In this document: in pieces, positions 5,352-30,532 of the stretch | How the letters are laid out: each line of letters begins with the position of its first letter | How positions within the stretch are numbered: the first letter of the stretch is position 1 | Made by a program: the position numbers and the translations under genes | The notes under the pieces: model-generated | Told to the model about the DNA's origin: nothing | What the model saw: the letters and a program-made list of their open reading frames with translations, nothing else | Databases searched by the model: none | Virus record (IMG/VR): IMGVR_UViG_3300035547_000249 | Strand: one strand, 5' to 3' | DNA from: a virus | Taxonomy: Duplodnaviria > Heunggongvirae > Uroviricota > Caudoviricetes | Length of the DNA: 64,000 bases

Positions 5352-5810
5352 ATGAAAAAGTTATCAAGTATTAACCACAGCTTAATTTTGTCTTTAATCG
5401 TTGCCCTCATCGCATTCAGTGTAATTTGTTCCACTGCATGGGCTGAGACAATTGGAGAATCAAAATCATCAGGTCTTTTGCTTAAGGATACAATAAGTGT
5501 AAATGCTTTCGATGATCCTGATTATTCAAGTATAGTATGTTATACAACAAATGTTGAAATTGGGGGACCCAACCTTGAAAATCCCTCTAATTCGTCAATT
5601 TCATGCAGGATGATTGATCATTTTAAGGGAACTCCAAAATCAAGGAATGATGTGTTCTCTAAGGCAAAGAGTCCGTTCTTTAAGAAGTTAACAGTGGATA
5701 GGTTTTATGATAAGAAACGCAATGTTCTGGTATACCTGTCCTATACAAAAAAGATGTCAGGGAGTAACGCGTCACATTCAGTGAGTGTGGTTCCTCTAGG
5801 GATAAAATAA
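5352..5810 (+). CDS. secreted protein with an N-terminal signal peptide (…TAWA/ET)
   Basis: RBS AAGGAG; N-terminal basic-hydrophobic segment with an AxA-like cleavage motif. Confidence 0.5.
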   Translation: MKKLSSINHSLILSLIVALIAFSVICSTAWAETIGESKSSGLLLKDTISVNAFDDPDYSSIVCYTTNVEIGGPNLENPSNSSISCRMIDHFKGTPKSRNDVFSKAKSPFFKKLTVDRFYDKKRNVLVYLSYTKKMSGSNASHSVSVVPLGIK

Positions 5811-5826
5811 TAGGAGAAAATAGACA

Positions 5827-6156
5827 ATGATACAGTTTTTATTTGCAACATTAGGTGCGTGGGTAATTTGGGTAATATATATCGTTATCAATACCCTGGC
5901 ATGGGCAATTTGTATGGAACACTGGGATGATATGATTTCTAACCTCGCAGATGAGGAAGAAATTGATGTCGGTGAATTTATTTTCGCGGCGGGCTCTTGG
6001 TTATTCTTTCCGATTATACTGGTAGTGATATTGTTTTGCAAAATATCGGTATTTATTATAAACCAAATCGTTGAGCCAGGTTTCAAAAAGTTCCTTAAGG
6101 CATTGCTGAAAATTATCCCAAAGTTTGAATTCAAAGTTAAATTTAAAGGAGATTAA
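5827..6156 (+). CDS. small membrane protein
   Basis: Three hydrophobic segments. Confidence 0.45.
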   Translation: MIQFLFATLGAWVIWVIYIVINTLAWAICMEHWDDMISNLADEEEIDVGEFIFAAGSWLFFPIILVVILFCKISVFIINQIVEPGFKKFLKALLKIIPKFEFKVKFKGD

Positions 6157-7520: not shown

Positions 7521-7904
7521 ATGGGTAATATTACTAAATCAAAAATGTCAATGGTTACTACAAGCATGCTTGGGGACCTTGGGGCATATTTATATTACAA
7601 CAAAAGATTTCCTGGTGATACATCCAACGATATACAAAGAAAATGTTTTTGTTTAGATGATTTTATTAAATTACTTAATGGTTACATATTATGTAAAAAC
7701 ACAGACAGTAATTATACCAATAGTATAAGTTATATTGAGATTGGAGAGGTATTATCACATATAAAAAACGGAGAAGACTTAATTAACAGACTAGAAGGTT
7801 ATTTTATGGTAATTGGTGAGGTGCTAGCTATAAAAGGTTCTATTGATGATATTACTGTAGGATTTAATAATAAAAAACAAGACAGTATAAACAGTATATG
7901 GTGA
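7521..7904 (+). CDS. NS[IV]W-tail family, subfamily A paralogue, ends …INSIW
   Basis: RBS GGAG; core …IEIGEVLSHIKNGED…; the stop TGA lies in the conserved 3' context. Confidence 0.6.
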   Translation: MGNITKSKMSMVTTSMLGDLGAYLYYNKRFPGDTSNDIQRKCFCLDDFIKLLNGYILCKNTDSNYTNSISYIEIGEVLSHIKNGEDLINRLEGYFMVIGEVLAIKGSIDDITVGFNNKKQDSINSIW

Positions 7905-10519: not shown

Positions 10520-11038
10520 ATGAAAAATAAAAGTATTATTATAATTTTAATCGTAGGATTGTCCTTGTTGTTTACAACAGCTTATGCCAACACAACAGAG
10601 GATAATACCGTAGCAGAAAACGTAAGCGACATTAGTAAAAGTGTGGCTACCAAGATAGGAGAAGTCGCAAAAGTTCTAAATGTGGAAGTAAATGAATTTG
10701 TAAAGAGTCCGGTAGGCTTAGGGGCATCGATACTTATCATATACAAACTTATTGGCGATGAAGCCATCGGTGCAATTAAGATGATCATATGGGTGCCGAT
10801 ATATTTAATACTGGTGTTTTCAATTGGAATGATGGCAAAAACAGTTTATGTAGGAAAGAAAATAGCATTCACTGCTAAAAGTTATATTCGTGACGGCACA
10901 GAATATAAAGACGTTACTGGAAAAAAGTATACTGAACCGTTGGTAAAAATAGATAGCGAAGCAGGATTTCTTACAGCTGTAGGTTTTATTATTGTACTAT
11001 CCATATTATCCATTCCAACATTTATAATGTTTGCATGA
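10520..11038 (+). CDS. membrane/secreted protein (signal peptide plus C-terminal TM segments)
   Basis: RBS AAGGAG; hydrophobic N-terminus and two C-terminal hydrophobic stretches. Confidence 0.5.
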   Translation: MKNKSIIIILIVGLSLLFTTAYANTTEDNTVAENVSDISKSVATKIGEVAKVLNVEVNEFVKSPVGLGASILIIYKLIGDEAIGAIKMIIWVPIYLILVFSIGMMAKTVYVGKKIAFTAKSYIRDGTEYKDVTGKKYTEPLVKIDSEAGFLTAVGFIIVLSILSIPTFIMFA

Positions 11039-11046
11039 TAAATAAA

Positions 11047-11244
11047 AGTGTCGGTAGCTCAAACGGATAGAGCGCACGTAAAACGGAACGTGTAAGGAGT
11101 AAAATCCGGCAATGAAACAATATTTTGTATGGTTGCAGAAGCACCGAACCTGCCAGTAAGGGCTTAGTAGGGAAGCGCGTTTCCAAGAAATATTGTACTT
11201 GGGAGTAATGCCCCAAGCAATTGCTTTGTGGGTTCGAGTCCCAC
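11047..11244 (+). tRNA. Non-canonical tRNA-like gene. It has a perfect 7-bp acceptor stem (GTGTCGG/CCGACAC), a D arm (GCTC-AAACGGATA-GAGC) and a T arm (GTGGG-TTCGAGT-CCCAC), but carries about 140 nt inserted between the anticodon-arm region and the T arm
   Basis: Base pairing read directly. The region is locally GC-rich (about 50%) against a 30% background. Two internal hairpins have 8-nt loops and no U33-like anticodon loop. No 3'-CCA is encoded. The anticodon is indeterminate. Confidence 0.5.
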
Positions 11245-11267
11245 CCGACACACAAATAACATAAGGA

Positions 11268-11975
11268 ATGATTATGATAGTAATGATTGAAGTCACAAGA
11301 CAATGCAACCTTAAGTGTGATCATTGTTTAAGAGGTAAGCAAGAAAATATATCAATAAACCCTTATGATGTTGATACTCTATTCTCACAAATTAAATATA
11401 TTGAAGTACTGGTATTAACGGGAGGAGAGCCAGCACTGCACCCACATAGGATAAGAGCTATAACATCTATAGCTAGAAGGAAAGGGGTCACAATAAATAA
11501 CTTCTATATTTCTACGAATGGCACAATATCAACAAATGATTTTCTGAGTAGTATATTCGACTTGTGGATGTATTGTAGCGTTAATGATGAATCATGTCTA
11601 GAGATATCTAATGATGTGTTCCATGATATGAAAAAGATACATCAAAACATTGGCAGATTGTCTGTATTTTCATTTACCAGATTCAGGTATAGACCAAACG
11701 AATTTGAATTGTCAGATAAATTTCCGGGGTATGTTTATGATTATGAAGGTAAAAAGGATATCATAAGCGAAGGAAGAGGAAAAAAGTATAATGACTTCCA
11801 AATACCAGTACCAAACTTCAAGAGAACAATTGAAAGAGGGGAATCTTTTGATATATATTTAAACAGTAAGGGTAATATAGTTCTTGGGTGCGATTGGTCG
11901 TATGAAACACAGGATAAAAACTACTTATGTCATGTATCAGAGTTAAGGTCATACTTGGAAAGACAGAAAAAATGA
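11268..11975 (+). CDS. radical SAM enzyme (CNLKCDHC = CxxxCxxC)
   Basis: N-terminal …TRQCNLKCDHCLRG… and a glycine-rich …VLTGGEPALHP… SAM-binding motif. Confidence 0.7.
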   Translation: MIMIVMIEVTRQCNLKCDHCLRGKQENISINPYDVDTLFSQIKYIEVLVLTGGEPALHPHRIRAITSIARRKGVTINNFYISTNGTISTNDFLSSIFDLWMYCSVNDESCLEISNDVFHDMKKIHQNIGRLSVFSFTRFRYRPNEFELSDKFPGYVYDYEGKKDIISEGRGKKYNDFQIPVPNFKRTIERGESFDIYLNSKGNIVLGCDWSYETQDKNYLCHVSELRSYLERQKK

Positions 11976-12826
11976 AAACAAAATGCAATTGTTGTGACGG
12001 TATTTATAATTCTTTTGATGTACATTTTACCAGTGCTTGTGATAATAAATGTGCCCATTGTGTTGATCTTTGTTATAATGGTTTAGGAATTAATAAACCA
12101 GATATTAGTGCAATTATTAATACAATTATAGAAAATGAAGACGGTGTTGATGATGTTCTTTTTCTGGGTGGAGAACCTTGTTTATACTTAAATGAATTAA
12201 TATCGTGTATAATTCAAATAAAAAAGAAAACAAATCTTAAGGTGTATGTAACAACCTCTATACCAAAGACCTGTTATACTGATAGAAATAAATTCATCAG
12301 ATTAATAGAAGAGGTAGATGGAATCAATCTATCTGTACAACACTATCGAGAGGATATAGCAGATCAGATAAGAAGAACAGTTTCAAAGTATGACAGACAA
12401 AGTTTCTATTCAGGTCTTCCTCACAAAGAAAAGATCAGAATCAATATAAATATTGTTAAACCCTTTCTTTATACTAAAAGAGATATATCTAATTGTTTAA
12501 GGCATTATGATAAAATGGGGTTTAATTCAATAAAGCTATCAGAGATACAACACGGAAAGGATGTGTATGTATCATTCTGTGATATTTTTGGTATAAAAAT
12601 GGGGTCTGCTTATTCTAATGGGTGTCAATCTTATTTAGAGATGGATAAAATATTGCCCGGATTTGTGACACCGGTATTGCTTAAGAGATCTTGTTTTTTG
12701 TGTGAAGACAGTCTAAAAGCATCAATTTTCGATGGTATTAAAATGTTATCAAAATTAATTAATACACCAGATAACAAATATGGTGTAATATATGAAAATG
12801 GACAATTAATGAAAGGATGGATATAA
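11972..12826 (+). CDS. radical SAM enzyme (CDNKCAHC)
   Basis: Start taken at ATG 11972 overlapping the upstream stop (ATGA). Motifs …FTSACDNKCAHCVD… and …LFLGGEPCLY…. Confidence 0.65.
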   Translation: MKTKCNCCDGIYNSFDVHFTSACDNKCAHCVDLCYNGLGINKPDISAIINTIIENEDGVDDVLFLGGEPCLYLNELISCIIQIKKKTNLKVYVTTSIPKTCYTDRNKFIRLIEEVDGINLSVQHYREDIADQIRRTVSKYDRQSFYSGLPHKEKIRININIVKPFLYTKRDISNCLRHYDKMGFNSIKLSEIQHGKDVYVSFCDIFGIKMGSAYSNGCQSYLEMDKILPGFVTPVLLKRSCFLCEDSLKASIFDGIKMLSKLINTPDNKYGVIYENGQLMKGWI

Positions 12827-12869
12827 ATGTTTACTACACTTTTGAGAAAATTAAATAAGTTTTTGATTA

Positions 12870-13391
12870 TTGTATCAGGGCATTGCGGATCTGGGCATTG
12901 CTCATAAAAAAAAGAAACATCTCATGGATTTAAAAGATAAAATAGAAAAAATTATACAGATTGAAACGAATGTAATAAAGGAAGCCGCCAAACAAATAAT
13001 TAAGTATTGTGAAGAAGATGAAAGTATAAATGAATTTGTTGAAATAATTACTGACACCAAAGAATATGGTGAAAGTTTTTATGAATACAAACGAAGTTTC
13101 CTAAACATGGTTCTTTATAAACTTGGCTACCAGTTCCACATAAATGAATTCCATGATACTGATTCGCTTAGCAATCTAGCATCTTTTATAGGAAATTATT
13201 GTTATGATGACGCTTATTATGTTATATACGATGATGATTATTTCTATGGCGGAATAAAACATCCTGATAATGATGATGAAAAACAGCTTCAGGGGGTAGA
13301 ACATCTATTAAAATTAGCAGAAAAGAAAGCAAAAAGAGAAATAGAAAGATTTAACAAACTTAGAAATCTACTTAATAACGAGGAGAAGTAA
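12870..13391 (+). CDS. hypothetical acidic protein
   Basis: ORF only. The start is uncertain; the alternative ATG at 12924 is in frame. Confidence 0.4.
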   Translation: MYQGIADLGIAHKKKKHLMDLKDKIEKIIQIETNVIKEAAKQIIKYCEEDESINEFVEIITDTKEYGESFYEYKRSFLNMVLYKLGYQFHINEFHDTDSLSNLASFIGNYCYDDAYYVIYDDDYFYGGIKHPDNDDEKQLQGVEHLLKLAEKKAKREIERFNKLRNLLNNEEK

Positions 13392-13392
13392 A

Positions 13393-14355
13393 GTGAAAAT
13401 AAAAGACGTATTGTATCTTCCAAGTGGCAGGGTCTTTATCCAGGAAATGCATGATGGCTACATCATAGAATCAACGGAAATGAGAGATGTAGCTGTAGAT
13501 GGTAAGTTACATGCAGAAGTAAGAGAAACACAAAATCCTCAGAAAGTATGGAAACATCTTGTGCCATACGAGAAGAAATGGTTATTAACAGTTAGCACAC
13601 AAAAGGGCTGTGTACATAACTGTAAATTCTGTGATGTTGCCAACCTACCCTTTAAAGGAAATCTGGAACAACATGAAATTGAAAAACAGGTATTTAACCT
13701 GTTAACATCAAGCCCATATGTAACAAAAAGCAATAAAGTTAAAATTGGGTTCGCAAGAATGGGAGAGCCTGCATGGAATATTGAAAATGTTCTTGGTGCT
13801 ATGAAGAATCTTCCTTCAATATCTGATTTAATGGGAATGAGTTTTAAATGGCTGCCCTGCTTTAACAGTATATTGCCAAGAAAAGCCAATGTTTTGGAAG
13901 AAGTGATAGATTTTAAAGAAAGCGTTTATGATGGTGTGTTGCATTTTCAAATATCCTGTAATTCAACAAACGAAGAAAAGAGACAGGAGCTTTTTGGCGG
14001 GGCTGATGTTCTTTCGCTAGATGAAATAATTCCAATAGTAAATAAGCAAAAAATTACAAACAGAACTATTACCCTTAACTTTATTGTTATGAAAGGGGTA
14101 GAAGTTTCAGTAGAAAAACTCAGAAAAATGGGCTTAAACGGAGATAAGTTCACAGTAAAATTAATACCACTCAACAACACAAAAAACGCAGAAAACAATG
14201 AACTCGAAACATTCGCTAACTATTCAAATTACGAAGATTTAATTAAGTTAGGCGAAGAATTCAATAAAAACGGTGTTCCTGTAGTAATTGACGCAATAGC
14301 TAAATGCGAGGAGGCTGGATTATGCTGCGGACAACTTGCCCAAATATATCTGTAA
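13393..14355 (+). CDS. radical SAM enzyme with an RlmN/Cfr-like cluster motif (…VSTQKGCVHNCKFCDVANLPFKGNL…)
   Basis: GTG start after AGGAGAAG. The motif closely parallels the RlmN/Cfr …SSQVGCxxxCxFC…G(F/L)xRNL… segment. At 320 aa the protein is shorter than RlmN. Confidence 0.6.
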   Translation: MKIKDVLYLPSGRVFIQEMHDGYIIESTEMRDVAVDGKLHAEVRETQNPQKVWKHLVPYEKKWLLTVSTQKGCVHNCKFCDVANLPFKGNLEQHEIEKQVFNLLTSSPYVTKSNKVKIGFARMGEPAWNIENVLGAMKNLPSISDLMGMSFKWLPCFNSILPRKANVLEEVIDFKESVYDGVLHFQISCNSTNEEKRQELFGGADVLSLDEIIPIVNKQKITNRTITLNFIVMKGVEVSVEKLRKMGLNGDKFTVKLIPLNNTKNAENNELETFANYSNYEDLIKLGEEFNKNGVPVVIDAIAKCEEAGLCCGQLAQIYL

Positions 14356-14951
14356 TAACTAATTTCGGGTGTCGTGCTAATTGTTGGTACTGTATTTGGA
14401 AAGGTCACAAACTGCAGAATATAAATGACCCAACTGATTGGGTAAAACTAAGAAAATTCCTTCATGATAATAAGAGCAAGGGCAAGGTTTCAGTATCAGG
14501 AGGAGGCGATTGTTTGTATAGATTTGATGAGTATTATGAATGGTGGGTAAATTTCTTTAAAATTACTCGCGAATTGAATATGTTGGTTGATATACATTCA
14601 AGGGAAAAATTTCTAAATAGTTTATTCTGGAAAGGCAGCGTCAACAGAAGTGTTTTTTCAAGCGATAGGTTGGAGGATGATGTAGATTATTTGCGTTATT
14701 TAAGAAAGTTTACGCAAGTTAGAATAACTCATTTAGTCACATTTGATACTACATTTAACATGATAGACGACTATTTAAAATTTCAGAAAGAAATAGATTG
14801 TCAGTTCACTATTAAAGAATTAATAGGGTATGATGATGGAGGTATGTATAAGAAAATAAGGGAAAAGTATCCAGATATATATCATTTGGATGAAGGTGAC
14901 TATAATATATACTATATGCCAAACAACACAGTAACCGACAGTTTTCTTTAA
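14322..14951 (+). CDS. small radical SAM enzyme (…GCRANCWYC…; …VSVSGGGDCLY…)
   Basis: Start taken at ATG 14322 after GAGGAGG. CxxxCxxC plus a glycine-rich SAM motif. Similar in size to QueE or activase-type radical SAM proteins. Confidence 0.6.
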   Translation: MLRTTCPNISVITNFGCRANCWYCIWKGHKLQNINDPTDWVKLRKFLHDNKSKGKVSVSGGGDCLYRFDEYYEWWVNFFKITRELNMLVDIHSREKFLNSLFWKGSVNRSVFSSDRLEDDVDYLRYLRKFTQVRITHLVTFDTTFNMIDDYLKFQKEIDCQFTIKELIGYDDGGMYKKIREKYPDIYHLDEGDYNIYYMPNNTVTDSFL

Positions 14952-19802: not shown

Positions 19803-19988
19803 ATGGAATCAATTATTATAGAGGAAAAGAAAAATTTGGCAGAAGAATACATTAAGTATATTACTGAAAATGAAATAAAAGATAAAACATGGAACGACTT
19901 TTTTGAATATGCAAAGGTGCCAATGAAACATAGAACAGATTTTGCTATAGCATCTATACTTAAACAAGTAATGGAGAAAAATAAATGA
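19803..19988 (+). CDS. hypothetical protein
   Basis: ORF only. Confidence 0.4.
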   Translation: MESIIIEEKKNLAEEYIKYITENEIKDKTWNDFFEYAKVPMKHRTDFAIASILKQVMEKNK

Positions 19989-21139
19989 AATTAAGTGAAT
20001 TATATGCGTTGTTGCTGATGGTAATGTGTTTAGTAATTGCAGTGTATGCTATAATTTACTTAGTATATACTGCAATAATAGAAACCAAAGAAATAATCAA
20101 AAAAGATTGTGTGAGAGAAGATGAGAATGAGGGGGAGCTAATATCTATAATCAGAAATTTGGAAAAGACAAACGACATGAAAGTTGTTTACCTGTCTATT
20201 GTTGGTTCTAAGTTATTTGGAACTGATACTAAGGACTCGGATACTGATTACAGAGGAATTTTTATACCTTCGGTCAATTCATGTATAACAAAAACATGTG
20301 AAGACAATATAATATTTAAAACAAAGAATGACGACAGCAAAAACAACTCAGAAGATTTAGATGTACAATTATGGTCAATACAACATTTCCTTAGCTTGTT
20401 GTCTTTTGGAGATGTTAATGCTATAGATCTACTGTTTTCTTATACAAAAAAGGATGCTGTGGTTATAAATACTAAAGAATTCAATAAAATAATAGAAAAC
20501 AGAAATATTTTGTTTAATATGAAGGATGCTGCTAATTATCTTGGTTTCTCCAGACAACAAGCCATAAAATATGGTTTAAAAGGTAGAAGGTATGGCAAAA
20601 TAAAAGATGTACACAACTATGTTAAATCTCTCAATACGAAGAATGACTCCAAACTGAAAGATGTCATGTTTGATATAGTTAATAAATTCGGGGAATACCC
20701 ATTGTGTTTCATTAAAAAACAAAAAGACTATTTAAATAGAGAAAATACTTTTATAGAAATATGCGGAGTTATGCATCAGGATACAATATCTATAAAAGAA
20801 TTTCTTAATAGAATGGAACCAAAAAGAGATGGGTATGGAGAAAGAGCTAAATTAGCAGAAGTAAATGAGGGTGAAGACTATAAAGCTCTGTCACATTCTA
20901 TCAGATGTATTTATCAAGTAGAAATGTTATTTAAAACTGGAAAAATAATCTTTCCTTTACTTCAAGCAGATTATTTAAGAGACATAAAGCTTGGAAAAAT
21001 AAGTAAAGAAGATATTAACAAAGAATTCAACAGTAAAATAGACGTACTCACACACAAAGCGGCCAATATGGGCGATTATCCAGTTAATAAGGGTACAATC
21101 AATAATTTTATAATGATGTTTTACAAGGATATCACATAA
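19985..21139 (+). CDS. predicted nucleotidyltransferase (pol-beta superfamily; …YLSIVGSKLFGTDTKDSDTDYRGIFIPS…) with an N-terminal TM segment
   Basis: The GS-x-L-F/Y-G-x-D-x-D-S-D-x-D-x-R-G motif resembles the RNA-ligase-associated 'predicted nucleotidyltransferase' family; assignment from memory. Confidence 0.5.
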   Translation: MKLSELYALLLMVMCLVIAVYAIIYLVYTAIIETKEIIKKDCVREDENEGELISIIRNLEKTNDMKVVYLSIVGSKLFGTDTKDSDTDYRGIFIPSVNSCITKTCEDNIIFKTKNDDSKNNSEDLDVQLWSIQHFLSLLSFGDVNAIDLLFSYTKKDAVVINTKEFNKIIENRNILFNMKDAANYLGFSRQQAIKYGLKGRRYGKIKDVHNYVKSLNTKNDSKLKDVMFDIVNKFGEYPLCFIKKQKDYLNRENTFIEICGVMHQDTISIKEFLNRMEPKRDGYGERAKLAEVNEGEDYKALSHSIRCIYQVEMLFKTGKIIFPLLQADYLRDIKLGKISKEDINKEFNSKIDVLTHKAANMGDYPVNKGTINNFIMMFYKDIT

Positions 21140-21161
21140 CGTCGGTAGATATAGGTGATAA

Positions 21162-21482
21162 ATGCATGAATTAATTATGGGATTGATTTTTATATCAATA
21201 GCAATTATTGTGATATTGGTAGTTATATTAATAAAATACCTAAATATAGATTATATAGATTGTGCTAATCAAAGCAATAGTTTTATATATAAACACTCAA
21301 ACATAAATGATAATTATCAAGGTACATACATGTCCAAATCAAGCAGAAAAAGATCAAGAAGAAGAAGAAAAAAAGAGAAACTAGAAAAAATAAGCAAGGG
21401 TTTAGTTACAAATAATATGTTTAGAAAAATAGGCATATTAACGGAAATAGATGATAAGGAGAACACAGATGGAAAGAATTAA
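21162..21482 (+). CDS. membrane-anchored protein with a highly basic stretch (KSSRKRSRRRRKKEK)
   Basis: TM N-terminus; Arg/Lys run. Confidence 0.4.
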   Translation: MHELIMGLIFISIAIIVILVVILIKYLNIDYIDCANQSNSFIYKHSNINDNYQGTYMSKSSRKRSRRRRKKEKLEKISKGLVTNNMFRKIGILTEIDDKENTDGKN

Positions 21483-21723
21483 AATAAAAAATATCGCCGA
21501 AGTACTTTTTGAAAGTAATTATATAAGTGTGGATGAATACCATAAAATAAATGGGTTTATTAACAGAAATAGATTTAATGCTGTAATAGGGGCACTGTCT
21601 ATGATCGGAATTAAAATAAAACAGAGTAATTTTCCTATTTCAGGACCGGCCAAGCTAACAGCTGATTCCGAACTAATTGTTCCTGGAATAAACACTAAAA
21701 AATACATCAATAATATGAGATAG
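21469..21723 (+). CDS. hypothetical protein
   Basis: Start taken at ATG 21469 after AAGGAGAA. Confidence 0.4.
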   Translation: MERIKIKNIAEVLFESNYISVDEYHKINGFINRNRFNAVIGALSMIGIKIKQSNFPISGPAKLTADSELIVPGINTKKYINNMR

Positions 21724-21735
21724 GAGATAATTATT

Positions 21736-21915
21736 ATGAAAAGAAGAGCATTAACTCCAAACGTCAGTTCTAGTATACTTAAATCAGTAGAAAAAAGCAC
21801 TATGTGTAAATGTAACAGTTTAAACATAGAACTGTTTCCAATAAGCAGGTTTAGCAAACATTCTACCATTTGTCCTGTACATATAAGATATATGGAGAAA
21901 ATAAAGAAAGGTTAA
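21736..21915 (+). CDS. small Cys-containing protein (59 aa)
   Basis: Translated by eye: MKRRALTPNVSSSILKSVEKSTMCKCNSL…ICPVH…; RBS AGGAGA. Confidence 0.35.
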   Translation: MKRRALTPNVSSSILKSVEKSTMCKCNSLNIELFPISRFSKHSTICPVHIRYMEKIKKG

Positions 21916-21919
21916 TAGC

Positions 21920-22315
21920 ATGAATAAATACCTTAGAAGAATGGCAAAGACAGCTACAAAAATAAACGAAACAGAACAAGGCATAATAAAAGAAAATAAA
22001 GAAATAAAAAACGGTAGATTGCTTTACAATGATAGTTACGCTGAATCAGTTGTTATAAAAAGTCTGAACAAAGGTGTTTATGTAGTAATACATGGTAACA
22101 ACATTATTATTCCTGAAGATGATGAGCACCTGCAAAAGATTTGCAAAAACAGTAAAATAGCTACTATACACAACGTTAAATTCATACAAAAAAATAAAGT
22201 AGTGCATATAAAAAGTGTGATAGTCTCAGTGGACAACATGCTAATAGAATATGAATCTGATGATGTCATACATTTTTTCGAAGAACCAAAAACAAAATAT
22301 AACAGTATATGGTAA
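21920..22315 (+). CDS. NS[IV]W-tail protein, ends …KYNSIW
   Basis: C-terminal NSIW-TAA followed by GGAGAA and the next ATG. Confidence 0.55.
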   Translation: MNKYLRRMAKTATKINETEQGIIKENKEIKNGRLLYNDSYAESVVIKSLNKGVYVVIHGNNIIIPEDDEHLQKICKNSKIATIHNVKFIQKNKVVHIKSVIVSVDNMLIEYESDDVIHFFEEPKTKYNSIW

Positions 22316-22325
22316 GGAGAATTGT

Positions 22326-22544
22326 ATGTTGATAGCTAAAGCAGTAAAAAGTGATAGTGGTTTAAAGAAGAACAAAAAATACTATATTGGCGGAATGGTG
22401 CAAGGTAGTAGAAATCTTGTTTTAATGGATATGAAATTTAATATAGTTCCTGGAAATTTTTCAACAGAGCTGTTTGATTCTACACCTGAAGAAGTTTTAA
22501 AAGCCATAGAAGAAGGAAAGTATGAATTAAAACAAAAGGATTAA
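22326..22544 (+). CDS. hypothetical protein
   Basis: Start taken at ATG 22326 after AAGGAGAA. Confidence 0.45.
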   Translation: MLIAKAVKSDSGLKKNKKYYIGGMVQGSRNLVLMDMKFNIVPGNFSTELFDSTPEEVLKAIEEGKYELKQKD

Positions 22545-22548
22545 TATT

Positions 22549-23076
22549 ATGAATAAAGAGGAAGTTTATGTAACAAATGATTTTATTGTAGAAACTGGAA
22601 ACAAAAATGTGTATGGTTTATTTTTTAGGAGTCCGATACAAAAGGTAGTATATGAACACAATGATGTTTCAAACTATTCACCATCTTCTGCAACTAAGTG
22701 GTTGTTTTGGGCCAGAATATTAATAATTCCATACCTATTAAATTTTAAGTCTTTTAGTAATAAAAGAGATTTTATCCACAACAGAAGAAACGCAGCAGGT
22801 ATAATAGTAAATGAACTAGCTATGCCCATATATTTCAGAAGAAATATTAGATATATGGAGTGCTGCATAAATAATGAAAATATAAATATATCTAAAATAA
22901 CATCAAAAGGATACGGTAAATATAAAAGTGATGATATAGGTATGTGTCATAAAGAAATAACTAAATTACATTTCAGAAACGGAAAGACAAAAAAGATAGT
23001 AAGAAGAGAAACATATTATTTCACTTATACTCACATAATGAAAAAGGTGATAAACGACATTGATTACTATCAATAA
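22549..23076 (+). CDS. hypothetical protein
   Basis: ORF only. Confidence 0.45.
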   Translation: MNKEEVYVTNDFIVETGNKNVYGLFFRSPIQKVVYEHNDVSNYSPSSATKWLFWARILIIPYLLNFKSFSNKRDFIHNRRNAAGIIVNELAMPIYFRRNIRYMECCINNENINISKITSKGYGKYKSDDIGMCHKEITKLHFRNGKTKKIVRRETYYFTYTHIMKKVINDIDYYQ

Positions 23077-23181
23077 AAAAGAGATAAAAAAGTGGCTAAT
23101 TTCTGTAGTAGTTTTTGTATTATTGCAGTTAATTATGTTCTCTATAATTAAACCATAATAGTAAATGAGGAGATATATAAA

Positions 23182-24288
23182 GTGTACACACAAGAATTAA
23201 TAAAAGAAAAAGGCATAGAGGCTCTAAAGGATCTCGATATAATTATCAAAGAGTATAATGATAGGTTATGTCTAAAATACACACTAATGTCTCCTAAATT
23301 TAATCCTGTAGTTAAAGAATGTAGAGGATTAATATTATCCCTCCCTGATCTTAATATTATAAGCAGACCTTTCGATAAATTTTTTAATTATGGAGAAGAT
23401 CCGGACGGCCAGTCATTTTTTGATTGGGAAAATTCAATAGTGTTTGAGAAAAGAGATGGTACTCTTATACATGTCTATAATTATAAAAATAAATGGTTTG
23501 CAGGTACAACTGGCACAGCATACGCAGAAGGAAGTCCTCAGCTCACAATAGAAACTGGTAACAAAGAAACATTTTATAATTTGTTTTTAGAGGCATTGAA
23601 CCTTTCTGGTTGTGATGGTATAGACGATCTTATGGTAAATCAACCAAAAGAATTTACCTATCTTTTTGAATTAACAAGCCCAAAAAACAGAATTGTTACC
23701 AGATATGATAAGACAGAACTTAGATTATTAGCTATAAGGAATAACAGAACCGGTAAATACATTGATTATAACTTTATTGCTAAAAACGGATTCAGTGAAA
23801 TAACTGACTTTTGTCCGCTGGTAAAAATTTATGATCTAAAAAACCTTAAAGACATAGAAGAATTTATATCCTCTTTACAAAACACAGAAGAAGGTGTGGT
23901 TTGTTATGACTATATTAATCAAATGAGGATAAAAATTAAAAATCCAGAGTATGTAAAACTTCATTATTTAAGAGGTAATTCTTTAAATAGAAAGTCAGTC
24001 ATAAGCTTACTTGTTAGCGGAGAGATTGATGAGTACTTATCATATTTTCCTGAAGATATAGAAATATTGAATTCATATATCAACAGGTATAACAATATGG
24101 TTGATGAAATAATGAAAGTATATGAAAATTTAAAAGAAATAAAAAATCAAAAAGAGTTTGCAAGAGAAGCAATAAAATATAAGTTTCAAAGTGCATTATT
24201 TTCTCTCAGGAGAGGTAATACCTTGAAAGATTTTTTTAGCTACAACGAAATGAATTATGTAAGGAAACTTTTCTATGATCATTATTGA
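23182..24288 (+). CDS. rnlA: ATP-dependent RNA ligase, T4 RnlA (Rnl1)-like
   Basis: GTG start after GAGGAG. Motifs …KECRGLIL…RPFDKFFNYGEDP…EKRDGTLI… parallel T4 Rnl1 …ECRGIMFE…RPMEKFFNLNENP…TKEDGSLV…, including the KxDG adenylylation lysine. Confidence 0.7.
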   Translation: MYTQELIKEKGIEALKDLDIIIKEYNDRLCLKYTLMSPKFNPVVKECRGLILSLPDLNIISRPFDKFFNYGEDPDGQSFFDWENSIVFEKRDGTLIHVYNYKNKWFAGTTGTAYAEGSPQLTIETGNKETFYNLFLEALNLSGCDGIDDLMVNQPKEFTYLFELTSPKNRIVTRYDKTELRLLAIRNNRTGKYIDYNFIAKNGFSEITDFCPLVKIYDLKNLKDIEEFISSLQNTEEGVVCYDYINQMRIKIKNPEYVKLHYLRGNSLNRKSVISLLVSGEIDEYLSYFPEDIEILNSYINRYNNMVDEIMKVYENLKEIKNQKEFAREAIKYKFQSALFSLRRGNTLKDFFSYNEMNYVRKLFYDHY

Positions 24289-24562
24289 TTCGGGCGTAGA
24301 AGTAAAATTAAACGAAAAGGTCAAACTTCTTGACAGAGATCATAAATATAAACCTTCAACAGTCAATCCAATTATGAAAAGTAAATATGAATGTATAGGA
24401 CGAATAACTTCAATTAGCACAACTTCGTCATTCGAAAGTCAAACCGTTAATACTAATAGAGGTTTTGTGGTTTACTGGGAAAACGGTAAAAGTAATATTT
24501 ACTTTGAAGGAGACTTAGTTAAATACAGAGACACATTAGATTCTATAAACAGTATCTGGTAG
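24275..24562 (+). CDS. NS[IV]W-tail family, subfamily B (95 aa), ends …INSIW
   Basis: Shares a K(Y/F)EC(I/C/S)G…(I/V)…W(E/D)NG…N(I/T)Y core with the next two genes; the Ile is encoded ATC here, ATA elsewhere. Confidence 0.55.
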   Translation: MIIIDSGVEVKLNEKVKLLDRDHKYKPSTVNPIMKSKYECIGRITSISTTSSFESQTVNTNRGFVVYWENGKSNIYFEGDLVKYRDTLDSINSIW

Positions 24563-24572
24563 GAGAAAAGAT

Positions 24573-24806
24573 ATGACTATATTCAGAGTTAATGATAGAG
24601 TGTTTTTGGCTAGTAAAAATGAATTGGGCAGGTCTCCAAATAATCCAAAAATTGGATCTGAATATGAGTGTTGTGGGACAGTAGCAGAAATAGGAAGACG
24701 TTCGGCTTTACCAATAATAGTCGAATGGGACAATGGAACTCATAACACTTATGCAGCCAGACATTTGATTAAAAAAGAAGAAACCACTTTAAATAGTATA
24801 TGGTAA
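24573..24806 (+). CDS. NS[IV]W-tail family, subfamily B (77 aa), ends …LNSIW
   Basis: R-N-D-x-V…NPKIGSEYECCG…VEWDNG…HLIKK core. Confidence 0.55.
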   Translation: MTIFRVNDRVFLASKNELGRSPNNPKIGSEYECCGTVAEIGRRSALPIIVEWDNGTHNTYAARHLIKKEETTLNSIW

Positions 24807-24810
24807 TAAT

Positions 24811-25053
24811 ATGGATAAATTTAAACGTAATGATAAAGTACGTCTTGACTCTTTTTCAAACTTTGTTGCATCATCACGTAATCCAAAAATGGGCACTATT
24901 TATGAATGTTCTGGAAAAGTAATAAATATTATAGGTACGCCCTATAAAAAAATAATAGCTGTCGAATGGAAAAACGGAGCTATTAATAATTATATGTCCA
25001 ATCATTTGATAAAAGATGATGAATCGGAACCAAATATAAATAGTGTATGGTAA
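24811..25053 (+). CDS. NS[IV]W-tail family, subfamily B (80 aa), ends …INSVW
   Basis: R-N-D-x-V…NPKMGTIYECSG…VEWKNG…HLIKD core. Confidence 0.55.
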   Translation: MDKFKRNDKVRLDSFSNFVASSRNPKMGTIYECSGKVINIIGTPYKKIIAVEWKNGAINNYMSNHLIKDDESEPNINSVW

Positions 25054-25072
25054 TTCATAGGAGACTTAAAAA

Positions 25073-25423
25073 ATGATGAGCAAAAAATATAATAATATTG
25101 TTGAACACACAGAAGAACTTTGTGATTTTGTAATAACACTGGTCGCGTTTATACTGCCTTTTTATATCATATTTTTTATGTTTGGTGTTATGGGTATAGT
25201 TTTTTTACAGGAAATATTTGGCCCAGCCACAGGTTATCATATATTGCTACCTTTTTGGTCCTCTCTTACTATAATCAGTATTTTTATAATTAGAATTAGA
25301 AAAAAGTATTTTAAAGAAGATATTATTTTTAAAACTTTTTATACTCTAATTGGATTATATAACTTATTTCACACTCTTAAAAAACTAAATGACTATATTG
25401 TATCAGGTGAAATAAACCACTAA
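25073..25423 (+). CDS. membrane protein (3 TM segments), apparently truncated by a 1-nt indel inside a 48-bp duplicated segment
   Basis: Hydrophobic segments; the 3' end lies inside the repeat shared with 19323-19372. Confidence 0.45.
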   Translation: MMSKKYNNIVEHTEELCDFVITLVAFILPFYIIFFMFGVMGIVFLQEIFGPATGYHILLPFWSSLTIISIFIIRIRKKYFKEDIIFKTFYTLIGLYNLFHTLKKLNDYIVSGEINH

Positions 25424-25584
25424 TAGATCCAAGTACAGTTAATAATGTCTATGGTTTTGGAGAAAAAATAATAGTGGTGTTAATTATTATAGCAATATTG
25501 TTTTTAATGATAGAAGGTATGATACATATATGGTATACATGGGGAAATAAAAAACGTTTATTCATAAAAATTTAAGGGGGAAAA

Positions 25585-25917
25585 ATGGGATATATAAGAA
25601 AATTAAAATCGTATTTTAGCTTAACCAAAATTATAAATAAAAGAAATAAAAAATTTGAAGAAAAAGTAGAATTCTTGAACCAGCTGATAAAATCAATAAA
25701 TAAAAGTTTTGGTTATACTGTATTATTCCTAAGAGTAAGAGATGATAAATCATTATTTTTAATGCATAAACAAAAGGATAATTTAGTGGTTTCAATATGT
25801 CAAGGAAGAATAGATATAATTGAAAGCACTATAATTGGAATAATGATAGGTCTCTCGTGGGCTTCTGAGAGAACCAGAAAAAATTTTGATAAAAAAGTAA
25901 TAAACATGGAGAAATAA
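25585..25917 (+). CDS. hypothetical protein
   Basis: RBS GGGGGAAAAATG; ORF only. Confidence 0.45.
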   Translation: MGYIRKLKSYFSLTKIINKRNKKFEEKVEFLNQLIKSINKSFGYTVLFLRVRDDKSLFLMHKQKDNLVVSICQGRIDIIESTIIGIMIGLSWASERTRKNFDKKVINMEK

Positions 25918-25918
25918 T

Positions 25919-26296
25919 ATGTCATATGAAGGAGCAAAACAAAGGTTTAAAAAAGAATTACACGAATATATGGAAAAAAATCCTTCGCTAAGAAAAGGGC
26001 AAGCAACATTTAATTTGATGTATATGAAATACCCAAATTTTGTTGACAATAAAACAGACCCTTTTTATCACGATGAACTTACCAATGACTTCATAGATGA
26101 ATGCTTCAGAAACATGAGCATGAAGCTTTATTGCCCAGAGTGTGGTACATATGATAATTCCATACATTGTGTAATATACCATAAGGACGGTTGTATTAAA
26201 ACTCAGTGTTTAGTGTGTGGAAAAGTGTTTGAGATAAAAGTAGTTAAAGATTTTGATGCTGAGAAAGAGTTAGAAGAAATGACAAAAGGAGAATAG
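25919..26296 (+). CDS. zinc-ribbon protein (CPECG…CLVCG)
   Basis: Cys motifs. Confidence 0.45.
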   Translation: MSYEGAKQRFKKELHEYMEKNPSLRKGQATFNLMYMKYPNFVDNKTDPFYHDELTNDFIDECFRNMSMKLYCPECGTYDNSIHCVIYHKDGCIKTQCLVCGKVFEIKVVKDFDAEKELEEMTKGE

Positions 26297-26300
26297 TTAA

Positions 26301-27368
26301 ATGTCTTATAACATGGCTTTGGAAACACTAAAATTATTCCACCAGTTCGAAAATGGTGAGATAGTTAAATTAATGAACGATACTTCACATCATGACGGTA
26401 TAAATTATATATCCGAAAACCACACAGAGGGCAGTGTGTGGGCTCATACTATGATGTGTTTAAACTATTTCTTAACTACCAATAAAAAGGTATATTATAA
26501 TGATGATGTGTTTATAGCCATTGTTATATCAATACTTTGTCATGACATAGGAAAAGTTTACACGAGAGAAGTAAAAGACAGCGGAAAAGTAACATTTCAT
26601 AATCATCCAGCCAACTCTATATTCAAAACAATAGATTTTATGTATTTTATAAGGAATGCTGGAATTATATCAAACTTCGATTACACTATTAATTTGGTTC
26701 TGCCGGCGGTATCAAATCATATTAATTTGTACAATGACAGCAAAAACAAACACTTATACTTTAACAATAATCAAGATCTTTATGAAGTGAGTTTACAATT
26801 AGGTATGAGTGATTCAATGGGGTCACTAAGTAAAAATAGAAAATTTAAGTTAGTAGATTATAAAGAGAAGGATAAGAAGAAAGAATATGATAGAACATGT
26901 TATGTGTTTTGTGGCCTTCCTGGAGTAGGAAAAGATTATTTGGCTGCAAAAAAAGGTCTTCTTATATTATCTTTTGATGATGAGAGGCTTGATATATATA
27001 AGAATTCATCACACTATGTAGACGGATTAAGTGAACTTGAAACTTATAGAAAAGCGCACGAATATTGTGACGAAAGAAAAATCAATTTATTAAAACTGAT
27101 AGCCAGAAGAGCTAAAGGGTGGGTTGGTAATATAGCAGTTTGCAATAAAAATCTTAGTGCTAAGGCAAGAAGATCTATTATTAACTCATTCGGAAACTAC
27201 AATTTTGAATGCATTTATGTGGTATCTGATATGGACACCATTATAGATAGAAATAATAAAAGAAAAAGTAGATCAATAGGTAAAGATATAATATTAAATA
27301 CTGCTATGAAACAAACAATTCCCTCTATAAGAGAAGGATTTGATACAATAAACATAGTAGCAAACTAA
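26301..27368 (+). CDS. HD-domain phosphohydrolase fused to a P-loop kinase (polynucleotide kinase-like)
   Basis: N-terminal …H…ILCHDIGK… (HD motif); C-terminal …CYVFCGLPGVGKDYLA… (Walker A). This is a Pnk-like domain combination found next to RNA ligases. Confidence 0.55.
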   Translation: MSYNMALETLKLFHQFENGEIVKLMNDTSHHDGINYISENHTEGSVWAHTMMCLNYFLTTNKKVYYNDDVFIAIVISILCHDIGKVYTREVKDSGKVTFHNHPANSIFKTIDFMYFIRNAGIISNFDYTINLVLPAVSNHINLYNDSKNKHLYFNNNQDLYEVSLQLGMSDSMGSLSKNRKFKLVDYKEKDKKKEYDRTCYVFCGLPGVGKDYLAAKKGLLILSFDDERLDIYKNSSHYVDGLSELETYRKAHEYCDERKINLLKLIARRAKGWVGNIAVCNKNLSAKARRSIINSFGNYNFECIYVVSDMDTIIDRNNKRKSRSIGKDIILNTAMKQTIPSIREGFDTINIVAN

Positions 27369-27381
27369 GGAGTTTGAAAAT

Positions 27382-27981
27382 ATGATAGTCATAGGAGATG
27401 TACACGGGGATTATGAAGCATTAATGGATTTAATGGAAATACTTCCACAAACAGAAAAAATTTGTTTTGTAGGGGATCTAATAGATAGGGGTCCTAAATC
27501 AAAAGAAGTTTTACAGTTTGTTATGGATAATAAATTTAAGTCTGTTTTAGGAAACCACGAAGACATGATGCTTTACGATAGAAGGTTGTGGCACAGCAAT
27601 GGTGCTAGAGAAACAATAAAATCATTTGGCTCAATGGAAGAATTGCTAAAATCAAAAGCATATAAATGGGTAGAAAAATTACCTATAATGATAGAACATA
27701 AAAACTTTCTTATTACCCATAGCTATGCTTATGATGGAGAAATAACTCCTCCAATAGACATATTGTGGGGAAGAAGAATAATAAAAGATCTTCCTCCAAG
27801 TGTGACAAATATATTCGGTCATACCCCATTTAAGGAAGTTAAAAAAGTATACGACAGGCACTATTGTATTGACACTGGATCTGTTTATGGAAATAAATTG
27901 TCTGCCATAGATCTTAAAAATATGAAAATATACAGTGTTCCTGGCGGAAAATTTAGAAATGTAGGAGGACTAAGCCAATAA
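27382..27981 (+). CDS. calcineurin-like metallophosphoesterase (lambda-phosphatase/ApaH-like)
   Basis: GDVHGD…GDLIDRGP…GNHE motif triad; RBS AAGGAG. Confidence 0.7.
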   Translation: MIVIGDVHGDYEALMDLMEILPQTEKICFVGDLIDRGPKSKEVLQFVMDNKFKSVLGNHEDMMLYDRRLWHSNGARETIKSFGSMEELLKSKAYKWVEKLPIMIEHKNFLITHSYAYDGEITPPIDILWGRRIIKDLPPSVTNIFGHTPFKEVKKVYDRHYCIDTGSVYGNKLSAIDLKNMKIYSVPGGKFRNVGGLSQ

Positions 27982-28095
27982 AGAATTATAAATAAGTGAG
28001 AAATCAAAAATAATATGATGGAGGGTGTGGAGCTATTAGTGCTCAAAACGCTAATTAATTACTAATATATATAGTAAACCATAAAGGATTATAAA

Positions 28096-28374
28096 ATGGA
28101 TTTGGCTGAAATAAATATAAAACAAATAAGTGTGGAAAACTCGCCAAATAATGATAAATCTGTAGAAATAATTTGTGAAGTAATCATTAAAGATATTGAT
28201 GATAACGTAACCGTTATAGACGTTGTTTTCGAAAATGAAAGATTAATAACGGTAAGTAGAGAAGCCACTACAACAGTATCTAAGAGTGTATTTAATAAGA
28301 TAAGAGAATCACTTATAATATACTCAAACGGACTCATTGGTAAGAGCAAAATAACATTAAATATTAAGGATTAA
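28096..28374 (+). CDS. hypothetical protein
   Basis: RBS AAGGA; ORF only. Confidence 0.45.
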   Translation: MDLAEINIKQISVENSPNNDKSVEIICEVIIKDIDDNVTVIDVVFENERLITVSREATTTVSKSVFNKIRESLIIYSNGLIGKSKITLNIKD

Positions 28375-28381
28375 GCTCATC

Positions 28382-28645
28382 ATGGTAAAAATGAAAAAGA
28401 TGTTAACTTATATGACAGATAACGGAAAAGTAAATAAAATTATAGAGATTGCAAATATAGTGACTTGTGATAGTTGTGGAAATGAGATGAGATTTACTGT
28501 CACATCTCCGTCAACTTGTCATAAGTGTTTTGCTACTATAGTAGCAGATGATTTTATATTTTCCAATAAAAAGAGTAGGTTGGAATACCATGATAACTAT
28601 GGTTTTGGTTGCGGAGAGAGTTTTCCTGGATATTATTATTTATAA
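28382..28645 (+). CDS. zinc-ribbon protein (CDSCG…CHKC)
   Basis: Cys motifs. Confidence 0.45.
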   Translation: MVKMKKMLTYMTDNGKVNKIIEIANIVTCDSCGNEMRFTVTSPSTCHKCFATIVADDFIFSNKKSRLEYHDNYGFGCGESFPGYYYL

Positions 28646-28744
28646 GAAAAAAAACAGGCAAAAAAATTATTGTAACGTGCTGACTGCCTGTTAAATATAA
28701 AGATAGCCAAGACCCCAATTCTTGGTTATCAAAAGGAGGTAAAA

Positions 28745-28942
28745 ATGATGGAAAATTACACAAAGTCTATTATGAGAGATAACTTTACCAGTACTACAAC
28801 TGAGTCTCATAAAAATTTATCGGAATGTATGGAAAGTGTTATAAAAGGAATAGATGCTGCCAAAGATCCGGAAAATATAGACATCATAAAGTTGAAAATG
28901 ATAAAAGGTAACATTATAGATGAAGGAGTTGAAATATGCTAA
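28745..28942 (+). CDS. hypothetical protein
   Basis: RBS AAGGAGG. Confidence 0.45.
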   Translation: MMENYTKSIMRDNFTSTTTESHKNLSECMESVIKGIDAAKDPENIDIIKLKMIKGNIIDEGVEIC

Positions 28943-30037: not shown

Positions 30038-30052
30038 ATAGTTATAGTTATT

Positions 30053-30080: not shown

Positions 30081-30101
30081 ACAAAAATAAAAGGAGAGAT
30101 A

Positions 30102-30500: not shown

Positions 30501-30532
30501 CAAATATAATAATAGTTCTAGGAGGAAGTAAA

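Follow-up and report, generated by a model that had tools for sequence, protein, structure and literature searches.

A widespread family of tRNA-shaped RNAs with a conserved variable-arm domain in phages and bacterial tRNA arrays, and its possible link to RNA repair

Results

An unannotated tRNA-shaped RNA gene between two phage genes

The viral sequence analysed here (IMG/VR record IMGVR_UViG_3300035547_000249, 64,000 nucleotides (nt), called the window below) is a phage-like region with an RNA polymerase beta-like gene, a sigma factor and phiEco32-type ligases, and at 11048-11252 it holds an unannotated predicted gene for a non-coding RNA in the shape of a transfer RNA (tRNA). The open-reading frame (ORF) upstream of this element, 10520-11038, ends 9 nt before it, and the ORF downstream, 11268-11975, begins 15 nt after it. 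A pattern scan found no promoter or terminator belonging to the element itself, apart from an internal hairpin (H2, below) that was flagged as terminator-like. From this tight spacing and the lack of signals of its own, we infer that the element is co-transcribed with its neighbours and excised. The tRNA frame consists of the following parts:

11048-11252, plus strand: tRNA-like RNA gene, 205 nt, a full-length match to the covariance model R1 described below
11048-11054, plus strand: acceptor 5′ strand GTGTCGG, 7 of 7 Watson-Crick pairs with CCGACAC at 11245-11251 (in the family, 7 pairs show compensatory changes and 99.3% of alignment cells are paired)
11055-56, plus strand: U8-A9, between acceptor and D arm
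11057-11073, plus strand: D arm, GCTC / AAACGGATA / GAGC, with GG in the loop and G26 following at 11074 (stem 90.8% paired and covarying in the family)
11075-11092, plus strand: hairpin at the position of the anticodon arm, 5-base-pair (bp) stem CACGT/ACGTG, 8-nt loop AAAACGGA at 11080-11087 lacking U33 (stem covarying, 91% paired)
11228-11244, plus strand: T arm, GTGGG-TTCGAGT-CCCAC (100% of cells paired, double changes in 4 of 5 pairs)
11245-11252, plus strand: acceptor 3′ strand CCGACAC and discriminator A, followed by CAA, so that CCA is not encoded in the window copy

An earlier, sequence-only reading of this locus had described a tRNA acceptor, U8-A9, a D arm with G18-G19, a T arm and a discriminator A, and all of these were located in the sequence. 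The limits given there, 11047-11244, leave out the 3′ acceptor strand and are corrected here to 11048-11252, and the distance between the D and T arms, put at about 165 nt, was counted as 154 nt. Both hairpins named in that reading are present (CACGT-AAAACGGA-ACGTG at 11075-11092 and CTTGGG-AGTAATGC-CCCAAG at 11198-11217), and it was right that a large insert lies away from position 37/38 and that the 8-nt loop lacks U33. The same reading saw an insertion of about 140 nt and no recognisable anticodon loop; instead, the first hairpin, with its 5-bp stem, directly follows G26 and occupies the position of the anticodon arm, which places the extra 135 nt (11093-11227) in the position of the variable arm.

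Standard annotation passes over this gene. ARAGORN reported 0 tRNA or transfer-messenger RNA (tmRNA) genes on the whole 64 kb, and none of the 4227 families of Rfam 15 matched across the window at gathering thresholds or at E≤0.05, so that neither program detected a canonical tRNA in the 64 kb. The Infernal and Rfam comparison that had been proposed as a check gave only 14 bits for the Rfam tRNA model on the element region and no tmRNA, Intron_gpI or YrlA match, the YrlA model finding nothing on the element region up to E=10 and nothing on the window up to E=0.05. The single-sequence minimum free energy z-score of the element was modest (-2.5). The arms and tertiary nucleotides are those of a canonical tRNA, and at the anticodon position AAAACGGA, of 8 nt and with A at position 33, stands where a decoding tRNA would have a 7-nt loop, U33 and a varying anticodon.

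The element belongs to a widespread family with covarying helices

A megablast search with 5 kb against sequenced phages returned no match. With sensitive blastn against sequenced phages, the interior of the element matched unannotated gaps in Streptomyces phage genomes, where the copies carry differing, covarying acceptor stems together with the common loop AAAACGGA and the common core GGUUGCAGARGCACCGAA ... GUAGGGAAGCGCGUU. Scanning IMG/VR, and GTDB with one genome for each species, for a pattern yielded further copies; about half of the matches in genomes were chance occurrences in coding DNA, and the plasmid collection contained no real match. A covariance model (CM) of 211 positions, R1, was built from 16 long-form members with the window excluded, and it matched the window over positions 1-211 of 211 with 152.6 bits (E=6.4e-51), the sole match in the 64 kb. 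Over 203 collected loci (given L numbers here) plus the window, R1 produced 61 matches in 60 loci, one of them with two copies, at 48.7-196 bits, with ordinary tRNAs scoring at most 35.5 bits, well below the members. The sequence-only reading had allowed that CM scoring might leave the acceptor, D and T pairings insignificant, which is contradicted by the score of the window and by the covariation of the helices. Bacterial genomes and metagenome-assembled genomes (MAGs) of many phyla account for 31 of the matches, and the members occur in phage tRNA clusters and in bacterial long tRNA arrays. Among 50,697 records of sequenced phages, 13 carry the element, all of them Streptomyces phages; 12 leave it unannotated, and in one it overlaps a hypothetical-protein call.

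In the alignment of the 61 sequences, 91.9% of cells were paired, compared to 40-47% with slid partners, double-sided changes were seen in 33 of 40 pairs, and 0 of 500 shuffles reached the observed values; the alignment was fitted to the CM, which favours pairing, and in favour of a real signal are the slid controls and the number of pair types. Compensatory changes were present in the acceptor, the D stem, the anticodon-position stem, the T stem, and two helices of the variable-arm domain, Pa and H2. The nucleotides that hold the tertiary structure of a tRNA are largely retained: U8 in 53 of the 61 members, A14 in 50, G18 in 54, G19 in 42 and C56 in 60, with G53, T54, T55, A58 and C61 in all 61. 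Members are 148-267 nt long with a variable arm of 60-190 nt, the short forms having a 60-nt insert with an identical core, and CCA directly follows the discriminator in 19 of 61 where about one would be expected by chance. The element thus belongs to a widespread, conserved family defined by a tRNA frame, an AAAACG loop hairpin and a large variable-arm domain, and the window copy has both the AAAACG loop and the family core UUGCRGAWGCACCGRA - hairpin - UAGGGAAGCGCGUU inside Pa. No description of the family turned up in the literature when it was searched by core sequence and by keywords, the b7a-tRNA (see Discussion) being compared by its description only. One viral contig, L036, carries two diverged family copies, at 7551-7790 and 2160-2340, the second with AAAAGCG / CGCUUUU.

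The variable-arm domain encloses a nearly invariant core

The 135 nt in the variable-arm position of the window copy form a multi-helical domain with the following parts:

11096-11107, plus strand: H1 hairpin GGA-GUAAAA-UCC, an optional feature of long forms with GUAAAA, GAGA or GAAA-type loops, recognised by inspection and lying outside the CM
11109-11113 and 11220-11224, plus strand: PL, a long-range helix (GCAAT/ATTGC) that closes the variable-arm domain, with inspection-level support
11117-11125 and 11188-11196, plus strand: Pa, helix ACAATATTT/AAATATTGT with 9 of 9 pairs, enclosing the core
11130-11148, plus strand: core 5′ strand TGGTTGCAGAAGCACCGAA, in which TGG pairs with CCA at 11183-85 and CC with GG at 11170-71, followed by GAA
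11149-11166, plus strand: Pb hairpin CCTGCCAGTAAGGGCTTA, of only 3 bp (GCC/GGC) in the window copy
11167-11185, plus strand: core 3′ strand GTAGGGAAGCGCGTTTCCA, with GUA opposite the GAA and with CGUUU (11177-81) complementary to AAACG (11081-85) of the anticodon-position loop
11198-11217, plus strand: H2 hairpin CTTGGG-AGTAATGC-CCCAAG with the conserved GUAAUG loop, a structural module though flagged as terminator-like

These helices are supported to different degrees. All 7 modelled pairs of Pa covary and are 72-82% paired (for example GACAGG/CCTGTC and GATAGG/CCTATC), and 7 of 7 pairs of H2 covary with 80% paired, H2 having letters at both positions in 20-26 of 61 members. Pb is a hairpin in nearly all members and covaries, with stems as diverse as UGGCU/GGUCU, CAGGGU/GGUUCU, ACAGCC/GGCCGA and ACAUC/GAUGC, among others. 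For PL, counterparts with at least eight different complementary pairs were found among the members, including UAGAC/GUCUA, CGAGG/CCUCG, CGCAG/CUGCG, GCAGAC/GUCUGC and GACAUAGA/UUUAUGUC, and a native-versus-cross test did not discriminate (means 6.15 vs 5.2).

Within the core, U86 and U87 are present in all 61 members, G88 in 57, C89 in 59, G91 in 60 and A92 in 58, and the two U that follow UAGGGAAGC.CG in 58-59 of 61. Both GCACCGRA and UAGGGAAGC.CG are invariant, in part due to ascertainment, members having been sought with the pattern GCACCGRA + UAGGGAAGCRCG. Outside this pattern, UUGC.G before it, UU after it and the loop AAAACG are also conserved in 56-61 of 61. The anticodon-position loop opens with AAAACG in all members, lacks U33 and spans 7-16 nt, and position by position A34-A36 are found in 60-61 of 61, the C in 56 and the G in 56. 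RNAalifold paired the core either as a mini-hairpin, UGC-RGAW-GCA (TGC-AGAA-GCA within the core 5′ strand of the window), or as a long irregular helix; since the core hardly varies, the alignment does not choose between these folds, and the variation that does occur (A/G at position 90, G88A in three sequences) fits either. The GAA facing GUA with flanking CC/GG looks like a loop-E or S-turn motif, as judged from the sequence. A likeness of the core to helix V and loop E of 5S ribosomal RNA (rRNA) (GCGCCGAUGG...AGUAGGGAAC) was noticed by eye and set aside, there being no Rfam 5S match. A sub-family, mostly of Myxococcota type (L116, L157, L189, L185, L153, L155, L177 and others), carries an extra module, CCUGCUACC ... 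GGGUGUGGG, between H1 and the core.

The AAACG of the loop and the CGUUU of the core are complementary in 93.3% of cells, and compensating insertions or deletions on the two sides were seen anecdotally in three members (AAAAGCG/CGCUUUU in the second copy of L036, AAGCG/CGCUU in L105 and AACUG/CGGUU in L097). The arm domain may therefore fold back to pair these two segments, which would hide the loop.

Relatives of the element recur beside RNA-repair genes

Neighbouring genes were counted by an iterated hidden Markov model (HMM) search on the 60 member loci, in which the median shorter flank was only 1.6 kb. Ro60-like genes were found in 10 of the 60 loci, several directly adjoining the element, Band-7 genes in 11 (at least four lineages plus the window), RtcB genes in 6 at a distance of 121-326 nt, and HNH genes in 9, all on the same strand as the element. 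RNA ligase genes were found by tblastn in 6 member loci (4 of 60 in the HMM census, plus two duplicate loci). None of these five kinds of gene was found in about 141 true non-member loci. In the phage Alone3 (L001), a tRNA cluster contains the element, which is 3 kb upstream of a Ro-like gene, and in Comrade the element is flanked by a Band-7-like gene and an RNA ligase gene. The most compact arrangement is an operon in a Methyloligellaceae MAG (L150) with Ro60 (its vWA end), YrlA, three Y-like repeats, the element, RtcB and RtcA, and no tRNA genes, which is the layout of the Salmonella rsr-yrlBA-rtcBA operon with one RNA added (PMC7790460). A direct repeat of about 35 nt, GCCTTAGTGGCGYTTGARCGTYACTAAT, flanks the element of L150 at 1319-1354 and 1689-1720, as would result from an insertion of the element that duplicated the sequence upstream of rtcB. 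For the remaining bacterial members, the setting is a long tRNA array with RtcB and HNH on its flanks, which matches the neighbourhood, including HNH and RtcB, that has been reported for such "L-arrays" (PMC8421152).

Other tRNA-like RNAs were encountered at these and related loci. At least four phage Ro60 loci (L206, L208, L220 and L268) have Y-RNA-like RNAs just upstream of Ro60 instead of the element; these are tRNA-framed RNAs of 120-130 nt at L206 3507-3629, L220 9361-9482 and 9492-9621, L208 9114-9240 and 9262-9389, and L268 7922-8049 and 8320-8447. Most tRNA-framed RNAs upstream of phage Ro60 carry a hairpin, CUUGNCC-loop-GGNCCGAAG, like the Ro-binding helix of Y RNAs, and three of them (L206 3507-3629, L268 7922-8049 and 8320-8447) score 43-48 bits with the Rfam tRNA model and about 30 bits with R1. 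Judged by sequence, these RNAs resemble Y RNAs of a non-permuted type. In Alone3, the stretch 5440-5860, upstream of the Ro-like gene, contains four repeats, CGAUGCGYAG...UACUUC, with T-arm and D-arm modules, of which 5447-5561 is a weak YrlA match (33.8 bits), and the annotated tRNA-Ser(gct) at 5785-5858 looks more like a Y-like RNA than a tRNA. A 74-nt tRNA-like gene stands directly upstream of Band-7 (slipin) in loci of Steroidobacteraceae type (L172 3904-3977, L127 4341-4415, L139 2627-2700, L149 2330-2403, L160 3163-3236 and L154 3548-3621); its body is near-identical in 6 of 6, and its anticodon loop differs (AAU, CAC, CAG, CAU and one 6-nt loop).

RNA-repair and other genes of the window

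The window encodes an RNA-repair island and, farther downstream, a CCA-adding enzyme, with domains assigned by Pfam:

19985-32164, plus strand: RNA-repair island, whose products are candidate partners of the element, judging by the neighbourhoods of its relatives
19985-21139, plus strand: RlaP nucleotidyltransferase
23182-24288, plus strand: Rnl1-type RNA ligase
26301-27368, plus strand: AAA_33 (P-loop kinase-type) domain protein
27382-27981, plus strand: metallophosphoesterase
29162-30037, plus strand: Band_7/SPFH protein
30102-30500, plus strand: GGACT-fold ORF
30533-32164, plus strand: Ro60 (TROVE and vWA)
59947-61347, plus strand: CCA-adding enzyme (PolyA_pol head, RNA-binding, tRNA_NucTran2_2 and HD domains)

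The Band_7/SPFH, GGACT and Ro60 genes stand side by side at 29162-32164. No Y RNA, YrlA or tRNA was detectable anywhere in the 64 kb, and the element is the sole tRNA-like RNA detectable in the window alongside Ro60. The CCA-adding enzyme is a candidate source of the CCA end of the element. The 0.8 kb that follow the gene of this enzyme (61348-62176) are without a long ORF and contain a T-loop-like GGTTCGAATCC at 61706-61716 and a 14-bp hairpin at 61635-61665; this stretch has no Rfam or R1 match and may, from these features, hold another non-coding RNA. A further cluster at 35620-57054, with three phiEco32-like COOH-NH2 ligases, four glutamine amidotransferases and ATP-grasp enzymes around the RNA polymerase beta-like gene (42689-45967), could be a system by which a large phage modifies peptides or metabolites.

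Discussion

Comparison with known tRNA-like RNAs

YrlA (RF02553; PMC4201824) is, like the element, a tRNA-mimic non-coding RNA of RNA-repair operons with conserved D-arm and T-arm nucleotides that is encoded beside rsr and rtcB, and the YrlA of M. smegmatis is an RNase P substrate that gains CCA (PMC4201824). YrlA, however, has its 5′ and 3′ ends paired in the Ro-binding stem, an acceptor capped by a loop and a GNCGAAN0-1G motif, whereas the ends of the element are acceptor ends as in a tRNA and its extra domain is in the variable arm. YrlA-type RNAs are also present besides the element in Alone3 and L150, and because of this co-occurrence and the rarity of the element at Ro60 loci, it is not simply the Y RNA of Ro60. 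The Y-like RNAs upstream of phage Ro60 share with the element an intact tRNA frame that holds an additional module, as well as two short motifs, AAAAC following the D arm and CGUUAUC ahead of the T-arm side; they differ in being 120-130 nt long and in that the insert is the Ro-binding-type hairpin CUUGNCC-loop-GGNCCGAAG.

Class II tRNAs (Leu, Ser, Tyr, Sec) resemble the element in having an extra helix between anticodon arm and T arm in an otherwise canonical cloverleaf. Their variable arm is 10-25 nt, in contrast to the 60-190 nt, multi-helical and sequence-conserved arm of the family, in which the anticodon loop is moreover replaced by the constant AAAACG motif. tmRNA and tRNAs with group I introns, both frequent in phages, likewise combine an acceptor/T-arm half with a long internal insertion, but tmRNA, which is without a D stem, contains pseudoknots and a reading frame for the tag, while the element has a full D arm and no tmRNA match; group I introns lie in the anticodon loop and match Intron_gpI, while the insert of the element is 3′ of a closed hairpin and has no such match.

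The b7a-tRNA, or "band 7-associated tRNA", was reportedly predicted by Burroughs and Aravind in 2016. Its gene accompanies those of RtcB and a Band-7 protein and occasionally lies beside Rsr (bioRxiv 10.1101/312249). Like the present family, it is a predicted tRNA-like non-coding RNA; relatives of the element have such neighbours in part of the 60 loci (Band-7 in 11, RtcB in 6, Ro60-like genes in 10), and in the window Band-7 is 18 kb away. The odds that the two are identical are roughly even: the context fits, and the 74-nt gene found upstream of Band-7 in six RtcB/Band-7 loci competes as a candidate for the b7a-tRNA, one to which the words "strongly resembles an authentic tRNA" apply no less well, while the element is 148-267 nt long and its window copy was missed by ARAGORN. 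Somewhat short of an even chance, we consider, is the view that the family is distinct from the b7a-tRNA (compared, as said, by description only) and would be a CCA-ended mimic with a near-invariant arm domain of about 55 nt folded onto its loop (AAACG/CGUUU), acting as a dedicated RNA of RtcB/RtcA-Ro60-type repair and of mobile tRNA arrays across many phyla.

A possible role in RNA repair

On its predicted structure, the element is a tRNA mimic and not a decoding tRNA. We give an even chance to the proposal that this mimic acts as a cofactor or scaffold of RNA-repair machinery. The element would be transcribed jointly with the flanking phage genes and excised by tRNA-processing enzymes (RNase P and 3′ trimming), the phage CCA-adding enzyme would supply CCA, and the RNA would fold into an L shape; such tRNA-like maturation is probable because of the conserved tertiary nucleotides, the CCA encoded in 19 of 61 members and the CCA-adding enzyme of the window. 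The invariant arm domain could then be a docking platform for a conserved partner, and the RNA would serve a repair machinery of RtcB- or Rnl-type ligase, end-healing enzymes, Ro60 and Band-7 that is thought to guard phages and mobile tRNA arrays against host tRNA-cutting nucleases, as a functional analogue of the Y RNAs (YrlA) of the rsr-rtcBA operon. This is consistent with past work proposing tRNA-like RNAs as cofactors of RtcB-type repair (bioRxiv 10.1101/312249; PMC7824862). Of the roles that had been suggested from the sequence, a tRNA-like regulatory RNA tied to RNA repair fits the relatives beside RtcB, RtcA, Ro60-like, Band-7 and RNA ligase genes and the members that encode CCA, and the variants specific to Ro60 or to radical-SAM enzymes fare worse.

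Several observations weigh against a role in repair. The role is derived from sequences and neighbourhoods, and many members lie within tRNA clusters, so that the link to RtcB and HNH could be partly inherited from the neighbourhood of long tRNA arrays. The reverse association is weak, so that the element is no obligate partner of Ro60 or Band-7: it was found in 1 of 80 phage Ro60 loci (±10 kb) and within 10 kb in 0 of 46 phage loci with relatives of the window Band-7, the 10-kb flanks of these 46 loci being too short for a syntenic position 18 kb away. In the window, it lies 9-19 kb from the repair genes (18 kb from Band-7). The invariance of the core is partly an artefact of the discovery of members by an exact pattern, the loop/core pairing showed no column covariation in the family alignment, and the core does not match the Ro-binding helix of the Y-like RNAs beside phage Ro60. 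The suggestion that the element is a specific Ro60 ligand is weakened by its rarity at phage Ro60 loci, several of which have Y-RNA-like RNAs of their own. The CCGAA of the core recalls the GGUCCGA of Y RNAs, but the bulged helix of the Ro-adjacent RNAs is absent, and this resemblance was rejected as an indication of Ro60 binding.

The most serious rival, and one compatible with a role in repair, is that the RNA is a decoy or sponge that binds host anticodon nucleases, VapC/HEPN-type toxins or other tRNA-binding defence proteins and that is either resistant to cleavage or sealed again after being cut. Such a function would be in keeping with a perfect tRNA frame whose loop does not decode and with the presence of the element in phage tRNA clusters and in long tRNA arrays, which have been proposed as sponges for toxin RNases (PMC8421152), and the ACG followed by R-A in the loop reads like an Arg anticodon loop. 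We nevertheless regard a decoy as unlikely, as it leaves the large, near-invariant variable-arm domain unexplained, the loop lacks U33 and varies in length, and hosts ranging from Actinomycetota to Pseudomonadota and Clostridia make a single conserved nuclease target improbable. That domain is the starting point of another proposal, a catalytic or ligand-sensing RNA in a tRNA scaffold with the core as ribozyme active site or aptamer. Across phyla, some 35 nt are nearly unchanged, and part of these lie outside the search pattern; the internal loops, with a GAA/GUA resembling loop E, are non-Watson-Crick, and, by inspection, GNRA-like loops (GUAAAA, GUAAUG) and receptor-like UAUGG/CCAAG suggest tertiary packing. 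This proposal is improbable, given that none of the 4227 Rfam families, known small ribozymes and riboswitches included, matches, that the element is located outside 5′ untranslated regions and that no cleavage-site signature was recognised.

The remaining proposals concern the loop, the insert and the adjacent genes, and each is less probable again. The canonical acceptor/T-arm half, the CCA encoded in 19 of 61 members and the 8-nt loop of the window could speak for a charged tRNA with an expanded loop, used for quadruplet or frameshift decoding, as had been suggested, or as an off-ribosome amino acid donor. The loop, however, begins with the same AAAACG in all members, lacks U33 and spans 7-16 nt, being thus constant in sequence and variable in length, and the acceptor, which varies freely at positions 2-6, showed no conserved identity set; a charged tRNA is very unlikely. 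In archaea and animals, the ligase of tRNA splicing is RtcB, and its presence beside some members is in keeping with an intron-containing tRNA precursor, also among the earlier suggestions, in which the 135-nt insert would be self-spliced or cut by a nuclease and the ends joined by RtcB. True group I intron tRNAs of phages do occur in the same data (L228 151-422, an Rfam Intron_gpI match of 88.9 bits, and L302 3608-3879, with an anticodon-loop insertion of about 200 nt resembling a group I intron). In the element, though, the insert is at the variable-arm position, outside 37/38, and is conserved together with the frame, its removal would leave the AAAACG loop AAAACGGA in place, the short forms carry a 60-nt insert with the same core, and no Rfam intron model matches; we find this precursor scarcely credible, the least probable of the proposals. 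Finally, the element had been proposed as a substrate of the four consecutive radical-SAM-like ORFs directly downstream on the same strand (11268-14951), for example for an unusual base modification. Two of these ORFs pass the curated cut-off of Pfam Radical_SAM and two match weakly, but no such cluster is among the neighbours at any of the other 60 loci and a search of IMG/VR returned no relative of the radical-SAM protein next to the element, so that a partnership with these enzymes is also very improbable.

Significance for RNA repair and phage biology

To our knowledge, tRNA-like RNAs such as YrlA and the b7a-tRNA are the least understood components of RNA repair, and we know of none with a demonstrated mechanism. 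The present family of at least 61 members, absent from Rfam, has near-invariant positions outside the search pattern, too, from Streptomyces phages to Pseudomonadota, Myxococcota and Clostridia, and it provides a defined RNA and a covariance model with which relatives can be found. It also indicates that tRNA-shaped genes can be concealed in the gaps of phage tRNA clusters. The cultured phages Comrade, Alone3, Kela and others, together with the compact rsr-YrlA-X-rtcBA operon, offer tractable systems for the function of tRNA mimics in RNA repair and phage counter-defence.

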